Source of the DNA: Plasmodiophora brassicae
Lineage: Eukaryota
DNA length: 64,000 nt
Assembly: GCA_036867785.1 (NCBI GenBank)
Contig: CP145422.1
Span: forward strand, 186,001 to 250,000
Reading direction: 5' to 3'
Below, piece after piece: positions 31,701 through 34,236 of this stretch (the stretch's first letter is position 1; the number at the start of each line of letters is the position of its first letter). Under the pieces are notes generated by a model. That model saw nothing but the letters and a program-made list of their open reading frames with translations, did no database searches and was not told the DNA's origin. The translations under genes and the position numbers were made by a program.

Positions 31701-34236
31701 AGAAAACGCTTCGAAGGCGTCGAGAAGAGGAAACGTTGACAATAAACATGCTCGCCAGGCACAGAACCAGATACCCGTCCTTGAACAGGGTGGGAGGCGA
31801 AATAAGTAGGGAGACGATGAGGAAGACAACCCATAGAATGAGAACTCCAAAGTTGAGAAAGATTCTCCCAAAGATAGATGAGAGACTGCGTACCCATTGA
31901 ATGTTTCTGGAGTTTGAGGCAATCGCGTTTTCCAGCCAGTCCGACGTGTTGAAATCATCGATTAAGTGAAGCTGGAACAAGCACAGCCCGGCAGCCAGCA
32001 TCGACGCAAAAAACGATGAGAAATAAGGTTGATCCAGGCGAACAAATCCCAATGATACAAGAACCGCGGATGAAACAGGCCCAGTTTGGAAAACAGTTAC
32101 GCCGTATTGGCAGATTAGGCCCATCACTGTAAACGCTGCTAGGGGAAGCCACGATTGGCGCTTTCTTGAAAGTGCAGGCAACGATACATAGACCAATGAC
32201 ATCAACACGTATGCGATGTGGAGCAGGTCGATACGACTGAGGCCGACGAAAAACACAACGAGTAACGCAAGCTTAGCACCGTATTCAAGAAGGACGACCT
32301 TGGCGACGCGATTAAACTCATCCCATCCATCAGCCATTGTTTCCCAGGCCTTTGTAAGCCCAAGACGAAGGCCCGAAGGTTCCCGCTTTCCCAGAGCTGG
32401 AACCCGGCTTCCAACTGAGCTTGCTGCCCCATGACGCAGCAACAGATTAGTGATACGCGTGTTCTTGGACAAAATGATAGGGGTGCGACGGTCACCGTCC
32501 ACTTTCTCTAATAATGATATGCCACCTTTTTCCAAAATGGTTCGGACAGACCCGAAATGGGAACTGAGAACAGCGTTGTGAAGTGCGGTTCTGCCCCGAC
32601 TATCGGCAGCATTCAACACAAGGTTTCTGTCGCGACGCAACGCCATCTCCAGGAAGCTTTCATCGCCAAGGGCGGCAGCATTTAGAATGTTGTCGGCAGA
32701 TAAAGGAGCCCGAAGAGCGGAACGGCGCTGTGCACTTGCACGGCAATACAAGGCAATAATAACCGCCGGAGCAAGAAACAGTGCCATCTGAAACGATGCA
32801 CTAGTGCTGGGATCGCCAGTGATCTTGAAGTCTCTGGCAACCGGATCAGAAAGGACTAACAGCCAAGGAATAGATAAGAAGATGTAGGCGCAAAACGAAG
32901 TAGAGACTGCCAACGGAAGCAGAACGGTAGACGAGAGTTCAGAAAATACCTCTGCGCCAAACAACAATGCCAGCAAGACCGCCGACATTATGATAAAGTT
33001 GAATCCTTGCACATCGAGGACAAATATAACTGAAAGCATCACGCAGCAAATGGAGATCTCAAGATTATGGAAAATGGGACGGATGAGGCGTACGAATCGG
33101 TTCGGCCATATGTACAGGTGAGGTTTCGGGTGGCTGCCCTGGTTCACGACCTTCTCTGCCGGGGCAGACGTCGCACGAGGTAAAGGAGGAACAGTCGCAG
33201 CAGCCAGCAGCACATTCGACGTCGATTCCTTTTTGACATCTTGCACGACGATAATGTTGTGTTCGGATACATCGGACGGTGCAGCGTATGACAGTGAAGG
33301 GAGTTCAGCTGAGTTGCGGCGCAGACCTTGCCTCGGCATATCCCGCTCGGGGTCAGTCAGAACGGGAGCCGATTTCGCTCGGGTTGGGACAGCTAGCGGA
33401 CCCGGAAGAGCGGGCTCCTCTTGAGCGATGGTGTTTAGGCCTCGATCGCGTTCCATGACAGATTTGGTCTTCCCTCGAAACGTCGTGGTGGAAAAGATTA
33501 CAATCAACCCGAGTTCGATACCAATTGCCACAGCTGTCAGCCCACTGGACAGCGTCCATATATCGTCACGGTCGGGAAGAACGCCAAGCACCTGCATCAC
33601 CCAGGGCGAGAGACCGTCCGCGATCAGCGACACTCGAAGGACAGCGATGGTTACAACGTGAGCACTGGAATAGACCATGAGCGGTAAACGGATAAAGCTC
33701 ACGTCGGAGTAGGACAACAATGACAACCCTTTCTCAAGCATTGGTCGGTATCTGGGCATTTGAGTGCCCCAGATAAACAAAAAGCTGAGAATTAGGATCG
33801 CAAACGGCAGCCGAAAGACGTTGGGTGATAGAACACACGCAGCGCTGGCTCCAACGAAGAACACAGTGACCCGGACGATACCAAGCGGCTGATGCTGGTC
33901 GACAGGGCCGGTGTTGCCGTAACTGCCTTTCGTGATCTGGACAATGGACGCAAGCAGGGCGGATACGGTGGATATGACGAAAACAATACGAGACCCACCA
34001 TCCAGCGGTCCAAGGTTAAACATGCGCCAGGGATCGATATCTGCAGGATCCGTTATTGAGTAGGTCAGCTGGGCGACCAACCAGCCGAGAGTCATAACCG
34101 CCGTCGACATGACCCATACGCGATGCGGCGGCAGCGTAACGCGCACGAGTACAACAACGATAAATAGGACTGACTCCAACCCGGCGCAGGCGACGCTGGC
34201 TACCAGCAGACTAACCACCTCCACCAGCCATATCAT
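25734..34236 (-). CDS. PIEZO: PIEZO mechanosensitive channel (~2,700 aa) with inserted ankyrin repeats and two PAS-like domains
   Basis: Spliced PFVAELEVLLGW (PFx2Ex6W signature), LEDIYANLY, PLLLFSSANP, IYISIVLAVGRVLR, ELELEEALYRSLIRLFRSPDSL C-terminus; many TM helices; intron 29392-29458 joins the 1630-aa and 672-aa ORFs. Confidence 0.93.

Follow-up and report, generated by a model that had tools for sequence, protein, structure and literature searches.

PIEZO Gene of Plasmodiophora brassicae

The window, a stretch of 64,000 nucleotides of P. brassicae contig CP145422.1 to which all positions refer unless another sequence is named, contains a PIEZO gene with the coding span 25734..34236; the gene and all its features lie on the minus strand. 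Joints in spliced contigs define ten exons and nine introns (introns 1-5 at 29392-29458, 27590-27644, 27394-27448, 27134-27186, and 27035-27087; introns 6-9 at 26720-26777, 26405-26457, 26087-26144, and 25868-25923). The joined exons encode a stop-free protein of 2,664 residues that is identical to the public protein XXQ37868.1 (P0005). Exon 1 (29459..34236, aa 1-1593) carries eight four-helix units, an ankyrin module, the beam, and the first part of a PAS domain.

The gene structure follows from nine CT..AC joints that contigs show across the coding span (region 25400-35000; four runs, each from a different study). Eight of the nine joints were seen in all four runs, and joint 26087-26144 in three; this intron is retained in a contig of one run. 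The four runs have no RNA label on record; all of them have spliced joints. The P. brassicae PIEZO is a complete, expressed gene. In one run of the four, intron 1 is also spliced to another acceptor (joint at 29404), at a depth of 27.5 versus 52.8. As read from the sequence, it shifts the frame, cuts the first PAS domain, and stops the protein ahead of the pore. The resulting 1,603-residue product has the ending of the older annotation PBRA_006922, with the pore missing, and the fact that this annotation ends the gene before the pore helps to explain why the architecture described here escaped notice.

Two loci with a PIEZO cap are present in the genome (25.3 Mb, 20 contigs), the gene in the window and one on contig C1. 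The latter (L006, about 818000-825200) has more introns and no ankyrin, and falls outside the ankyrin clade described below. At the 5' end of the PIEZO gene in the window there are two SNF2-family helicase genes on the plus strand (34620-37374 and 38700-41720), the first of which is arranged head to head with it; their transcript contigs merge. Two similar stand-alone ankyrin genes stand in tandem on the plus strand at 21851-22810 and 23547-24443, 8-10 kb away from the ankyrin module, with tRNA-Lys(CTT) genes nearby at 21138 and 24608; the second has an upstream piece (23131-23511) with a hydrophobic leader. These tandem genes may belong to an expanded ankyrin family of this organism.

Blade Architecture

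In a Pfam scan of the whole protein, Piezo_THU9_anchor (PF24874, 209.9 bits), Piezo_cap (PF12166, 167.1 bits), and THU_Piezo1 (65.3 bits) all score over the cut-off. The C-terminal pore module is complete by Pfam, with THU9, anchor, outer helix, cap, and inner helix followed by the C-terminal domain (aa about 2130-2664; 25734..27782, exons 2-10), and the THU_Piezo1 match identifies the counterpart of animal THU8 (aa 1878-2000; 28170..28538). Upstream lies a blade of repeated four-helix units and then the beam, whose long helix precedes the first PAS domain. Hydropathy and the alignment with the Spongospora orthologue place three units before the ankyrin module, at about aa 1-102, 116-250, and 388-500. 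The third of these (32737..33075) is equated with animal THU3 by hhalign (52%, E 1.4e-4) and by its order between firm matches. After the module there is a variable, low-confidence linker with the start of a long helix that runs into the next unit (aa 605-647; 32296..32424); it is 21% identical to Spongospora, and pLDDT is below 50 at model residues 228-244. The fourth unit (aa 648-760; 31957..32295) is THU4-like, and either it or the next one is extra in comparison with animals.

In profile comparison, units 1, 2, 7, and 8 correspond to animal THU1, 2, 6, and 7 (94-97%), the match of unit 6 to THU5 is weak (23%), and units 4 and 5 (31459-32295) both match animal THU4 (93% and 96%). The layout of animal PIEZOs, with nine units and 38 helices, was not found here; from the profiles we infer ten units and about 42 helices. 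Rows from a plant (Zingiber P0014) and an amoebozoan (Balamuthia P0170/P0177) appear to have ten units as well in the Pfam PF25288 region, with weak scores for the plant and with the amoebozoan row itself part of the profiles. Since the extra unit is common to these rows, nine units would be a trait of animals rather than of the family, and animals may have lost one blade unit. The sequence-only reading of this DNA had missed both the tenth helical unit and the PAS domain(s).

The units flanking the ankyrin module in an AlphaFold2 model overlay the blades of PIEZO1 and PIEZO2 with Z of 16.4-17.4, the best being mPIEZO1 (Z 17.4, 265 residues, rmsd 5.1). A Foldseek search with the blade-ankyrin model gave nothing at E<=0.001, its best match being PIEZO2 (E 1.2e-3), and the match was resolved by the VIA-align overlay.

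Ankyrin Domain in the Distal Blade

About three ankyrin repeats had been noticed in frame within the long first exon, between transmembrane bundles, and this observation is confirmed. The four peptides on which it was based are in frame on the minus strand (32688-32662, 32607-32533, 32499-32476, and 32454-32425), within an open frame of 1,633 codons. Pfam, model, and profile together delimit a module of three repeats, the third a few residues short (aa 512-604; 32425..32703), between four-helix units 3 and 4 of exon 1.

The ankyrin HMM check is positive on the isolated 105-aa piece, where Ank_4 (24.6 bits, cut-off 22.7) and Ank (23.3 bits, cut-off 21.1) both exceed their cut-offs; Ank_2, at 26.7 bits against 27.3, is 0.6 bit short. 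In the whole exon and the whole protein all ankyrin scores fall below the cut-off (Ank_2, 19.7 and 18.8 bits, respectively), which indicates that the repeats are degenerate; the TPLH-type motif is intact in repeat 2 only and degenerate in repeats 1 and 3. A profile made of six other ankyrin-PIEZO modules, with P. brassicae and Spongospora excluded, gives the segment 25.1 bits; the highest score among 1,000 shuffled versions (863 reported) is 5.7. In a phmmer search with aa 393-1592, the best-matching stretch was the ankyrin segment in 142 of the best 150 matches (table read by eye), and the 4 of these 142 proteins that were domain-scanned are all multi-ankyrin proteins. AlphaFold2, with a 12-row alignment, models aa 514-601 as stacked helix pairs with pLDDT of 83-92. 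When it is superposed on solved ankyrin domains, Z reaches 15.9, at an rmsd of 1.4 A over 93 residues; among the best matches are DARPins, tankyrase ARC4, MIB1, and ankyrin-B (Z 15.3-15.9, rmsd from 1.3-1.4 A, about 90 residues), as well as the ankyrin domain of glutaminase.

The segment is retained in the spliced contigs. In all four runs, from four studies, a contig crosses it free of joints, and its removal by splicing, raised earlier as a possible objection, is rejected at the level of contigs, a rare isoform being possible.

As for the side of the membrane, loops between the units are intracellular in PIEZO structures. The description in the available part of PMC8924262 is consistent with this. 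The ankyrin module follows helix 12 of the blade, and, with helix boundaries set by hand, lysine and arginine make up 41 of the 276 flank residues (0.149) in loops predicted inside versus 14 of 236 (0.059) in those predicted outside. Both the position and this bias predict, with good confidence, that the loop carrying the module is cytosolic, in agreement with what a topology prediction had been expected to confirm. Altogether, it is almost certain that the module is a genuine ankyrin domain, conserved and facing the cytosol.

The module is 56% identical to that of Spongospora over 93 residues. Other inter-unit loops of the two proteins are 16-31% identical, and helical units 31-56%. Judging by these identities, the module is kept under selection. 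Between P. brassicae and the distant members its identity is 13-24%, and surface residues are poorly kept; net charge varies across the carriers from +3 to -8, and there is no conserved basic surface.

A PAS Domain and a Probable Second Copy in the Beam-to-THU8 Loop

A PAS domain (PAS1, aa 1517-1625; 29295..29688) follows the beam helix immediately; it is interrupted by intron 1 and completed by the splicing of this intron. The Pfam PAS model scores 24.7 bits here (cut-off 22.6) and 37.0 bits in Spongospora. The predicted fold resembles PAS domains with Z 12.2, a value that is not independent of the assignment because the alignment was PAS-seeded; alignments with unrelated sequence in the PAS region (A2 and A3) were excluded from folding, and the PAS and ANK rows of a profile comparison that derived from alignments of this kind were set aside.

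A second, divergent PAS domain (PAS2) probably follows at aa 1660-1795 (28785..29192). Its language-model look-alikes (0.94) belong to PAS-bearing clusters, in which 25-27% of members have PAS, and the order of strands and helices fits this fold. The region has no Pfam hit, its model pLDDT is mostly below 50, and it is 39% identical to Spongospora. The profiles of PAS1 and PAS2 show no likeness to each other (hhalign 0.1%), and comparison of PAS2 with 13 other PAS loci of the genome gave no convincing match. The genome has several genes for PAS-PAS proteins and PAS hybrid histidine kinases (L008-L020), and contig C16 has a tandem array of three of them; the PAS1 profile of the PIEZO gives weak matches to the PAS domains of these kinases and PAS-PAS proteins (E about 1e-6, in a small set).

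Among the carriers of the ankyrin module, no PAS was found beyond the two plasmodiophorids, from which it follows that PAS was gained later, in the plasmodiophorids. One other carrier, P0121, has a strand-rich insert without a Pfam match in the beam-to-THU8 loop (about 1390-1570), possibly another folded domain at the site of the plasmodiophorid PAS.

Distribution and Phylogeny of Ankyrin-Bearing PIEZOs

The sequence-only reading had treated the module as an insertion in one gene, and this does not hold. The module occurs in nine PIEZO sequences, always between units 3 and 4, with Ank_2 over the cut-off in six of them. In the eight carriers measured, 8-16 residues separate unit 3 from the module and 35-44 residues follow it. 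The orthologue of Spongospora subterranea is 41% identical to the P. brassicae protein and has Ank_2 over the cut-off. A search with the pore region gave 17 relatives. Ankyrin domains are present in the first and third of these, the second has no N-terminal part, and for the remaining 14 no ankyrin is listed. A word-free search added four further ankyrin PIEZOs (P0031, P0059, P0102, and P0121) and one without ankyrin, from Balamuthia; by cluster look-up P0059 comes from the foraminifer Nonionella stella, a transcriptome label that can err. Word-index searches, each with about 8,000 candidates scored, gave no orthologue: the blade had three matches, two of them unrelated ankyrin proteins, and exon 2 had one weak PIEZO. 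The best match of the blade-ankyrin part in a language-model search reached only 0.89, which is a lead.

A scan of metagenomes for pore motifs gave 15 loci, in one of which (L021) ankyrin was detected by the module profile, with Pfam Ank_2 at 22.8 bits, below the cut-off. Two near-identical loci, L029 and L031, cover the loop between units 3 and 4 and have no ankyrin there; L025 starts inside the loop, the sequences of L022, L023, L024, and P0012 do not include the loop, and no span from unit 3 to unit 4 was seen in the remaining metagenome loci. The L021 gene (1832-12751) is an intronless ankyrin-PIEZO of 3,640 codons with long low-complexity insertions, one of them inside the ankyrin module. 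Neither 13 other PIEZO proteins nor 20 kb around the C1 paralogue yielded a match to the module profile under E 1.

Trees of the pore region, which hold no ankyrin columns, unite the carriers. With 17 rows they lie on one side of a branch supported at 100/98, and with 24 rows they form one clade (96/90) that has the C1 paralogue outside (P0012 is labelled ANK in the former tree and unlabelled in the latter, where L025 is labelled noANK). Moreover, L021, which was found through its pore motifs alone, joins the ankyrin clade and has the module at the same place, and L029 falls outside. P0059 and P0102 are without the pore region; a tree of the blade, likewise without ankyrin columns, groups them with the carriers (89/92), and this tree, the one that holds the foraminifer, has two outgroups and weaker support. 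The carriers were gathered by likeness to the query and compared with few outgroups, among which there is no named stramenopile or alveolate PIEZO. Three carriers have a taxon, two being Endomyxa and one Retaria, and P0011 and P0013 are near relatives; Rhizaria-centred is thus a fair wording for the clade. As far as the trees and the constant position indicate, the module is an old feature of a whole PIEZO clade.

Discussion

Ankyrin repeats are protein-binding scaffolds. Sequence, model, and tree agree on a PIEZO subunit of a Rhizaria-centred clade, the ancestor of which gained a three-repeat ankyrin domain after unit 3. By PIEZO topology, the trimer would carry three small rigid binding surfaces under its outer blades. 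Each could dock a cytosolic partner linked to the cortical cytoskeleton, and an internal pull or restraint would then engage the blade through a long lever arm and modulate channel opening, besides membrane tension. In plasmodiophorids only, and more tentatively, the PAS domain(s) might let a small molecule or a partner modulate the beam. The reading that we prefer, to which we give somewhat less than an even chance, is that the module couples the distal blade to a cytoskeleton-linked partner as a docking site rather than an elastic spring.

The module would be the folded counterpart of IDR5, an acidic, disordered region of mouse PIEZO2. According to the accessible text of PMC8924262, residues E625-E630 of IDR5 are required for activation transmitted by the cytoskeleton and not for activation by stretch. 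In the mouse protein the end of THU3 is near residue 601 and the beginning of THU4 near 690, so these residues are within the loop equivalent to the ankyrin site. The earlier suggestion of docking and not a spring agrees with a module of only three repeats and with the linkers on either side of it, which are short and vary little in length. Several points weigh against docking to the cytoskeleton: the low conservation of the surface and the wide range of charge do not point to a single, constant partner, the similarity of unit 3 to THU3 is moderate, and the extra unit follows unit 3. In addition, currents of the nematode PEZO-1 do not require the distal blade (PMC12951647, in the portion available), and the place shared with IDR5 may reflect only a loop that tolerates insertions.

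Three repeats suffice for binding, as in tankyrase ARC4, MIB1, glutaminase, and DARPins among the fold matches, and the partner could instead serve trafficking, clustering, turnover, or signalling (a kinase, an adaptor, or a ubiquitin ligase) with no force involved. The nematode result, by which a distal blade can be dispensable for gating, is in agreement with such a dock; the tightly kept lengths of the linkers count against it, as does the counterpart loop in PIEZO2, which affects force transmission and not trafficking (PMC8924262, in the text available), and we consider it possible but rather improbable. The module could also act as an internal brace and set blade curvature by packing against neighbouring helices of the blade, against the inner leaflet, or against the next subunit. 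It is stapled at both ends, the helix leading out of unit 3 continues into repeat 1 with hardly a bend, and this junction is 64% identical to Spongospora. TRPV ankyrin domains bind nucleotide or calmodulin, and the same role, as a sensor, is conceivable here; the ankyrin domain of TRPV6 is one of many matches to the fold with tied scores. At pTM 0.55, the model does not fix how the module sits relative to the blade, and we hold a brace or sensor to be unlikely. A gating spring that binds microtubules directly, as ankyrin repeats link NOMPC to microtubules (PMC9108448, in the part available), is very improbable. The profile A1 does match the NOMPC repeats, but it matches all ankyrins, and the spring is rejected on the repeat count (three versus more than twenty, according to the same part of PMC9108448), on the internal rather than N-terminal position far from the pore, and on the absence of a conserved basic surface.

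The least credible explanation, to which we give next to no weight, regards the module as inserted recently or neutrally out of the expansion of ankyrin genes in this genome, or as an artefact of annotation. Its attraction lies in the two stand-alone ankyrin genes nearby and in repeats that stay under the Pfam cut-off in the whole protein. Against it, the module is present in spliced contigs of four studies. The module is 34-37% identical to the neighbouring genes over 35-80 residues, as compared with 56% over 93 residues to Spongospora, its GC content (0.51) is near that of the flanking exon (0.46-0.48) and unlike that of those genes (0.58-0.62), and it is also present in a foraminifer and six other relatives. 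A recent local insertion is therefore excluded, Spongospora being closer than the neighbouring ankyrin genes and the base composition being that of its own exon.

Docking to a cytoskeleton-linked partner remains our preferred reading. Its widest form, a speculation that we regard as unlikely, is that a PIEZO subfamily throughout Rhizaria has a genetically built-in cytoskeletal tether in the distal blade and that plasmodiophorid parasites added tandem PAS sensors on the beam loop. If true, a single channel would integrate membrane tension, the pull of the cytoskeleton, and a chemical cue, for example, in zoospore attachment or host-cell entry.

The tie between PIEZO and the cytoskeleton is an open question, and the relevant loop of PIEZO2 is disordered; PIEZO2 offers few structural clues to this linkage, according to the portion of PMC9108448 available. 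A folded binding domain in that loop could serve as bait to capture partners and could be cleanly deleted or swapped; the PAS domains would give a PIEZO that is chemically tunable, and the ankyrin clade represents a lineage of PIEZOs in a supergroup that has received little study. In the literature searched, mostly open-access, we found no description of PIEZOs bearing ankyrin or PAS, a search that supplementary domain tables listing the architecture could escape; "ankyrin" does not occur in the available parts of PMC8920221 and PMC11283329. One JGI record, an automatic annotation, already labels P0031 as Piezo plus ankyrin. The ankyrin-PIEZO belongs to the PIEZO family, in which it stands out by a further domain; it is apparently undescribed and is not a NOMPC-type tether.

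Mouse and human PIEZO1 and PIEZO2 (6KG7, 8YEZ, and 7WLT) and nematode PEZO-1 (9UOY) have the same order of blade units, beam, THU8, THU9, anchor, cap, and pore helices. The P. brassicae protein differs in the ankyrin domain after THU3, the PAS domain(s) between the beam and THU8, and ten units instead of nine. No ankyrin was found in the animal PIEZOs sampled, and the earlier statement that animal and plant PIEZOs lack it holds for those sampled; the Zingiber and Balamuthia proteins apparently share the extra THU4-like unit and have neither ankyrin after unit 3 nor PAS. In PIEZO2, IDR5 shares the THU3-THU4 loop with the ankyrin module, and IDR2, which lies between the clasp and THU8 and sets velocity sensitivity (PMC8924262, available part), shares its region with the PAS domains; the PIEZO2 loops are disordered, whereas those of the P. 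brassicae PIEZO hold folded domains, so that the equivalence is one of position only. NOMPC/TRPN is likewise a mechanosensitive channel with cytosolic ankyrin repeats, but it is unrelated and has a long N-terminal repeat helix that binds microtubules, in contrast to three repeats inside a PIEZO blade; an N-terminal array of more than 20 repeats was not found here. Finally, hERG/EAG channels also combine a cytosolic PAS domain with an ion channel, and the hERG PAS is among the fold matches of PAS1 (Z 10.7, tied). In these unrelated channels PAS is N-terminal, whereas in the P. brassicae PIEZO it is internal and probably in tandem.
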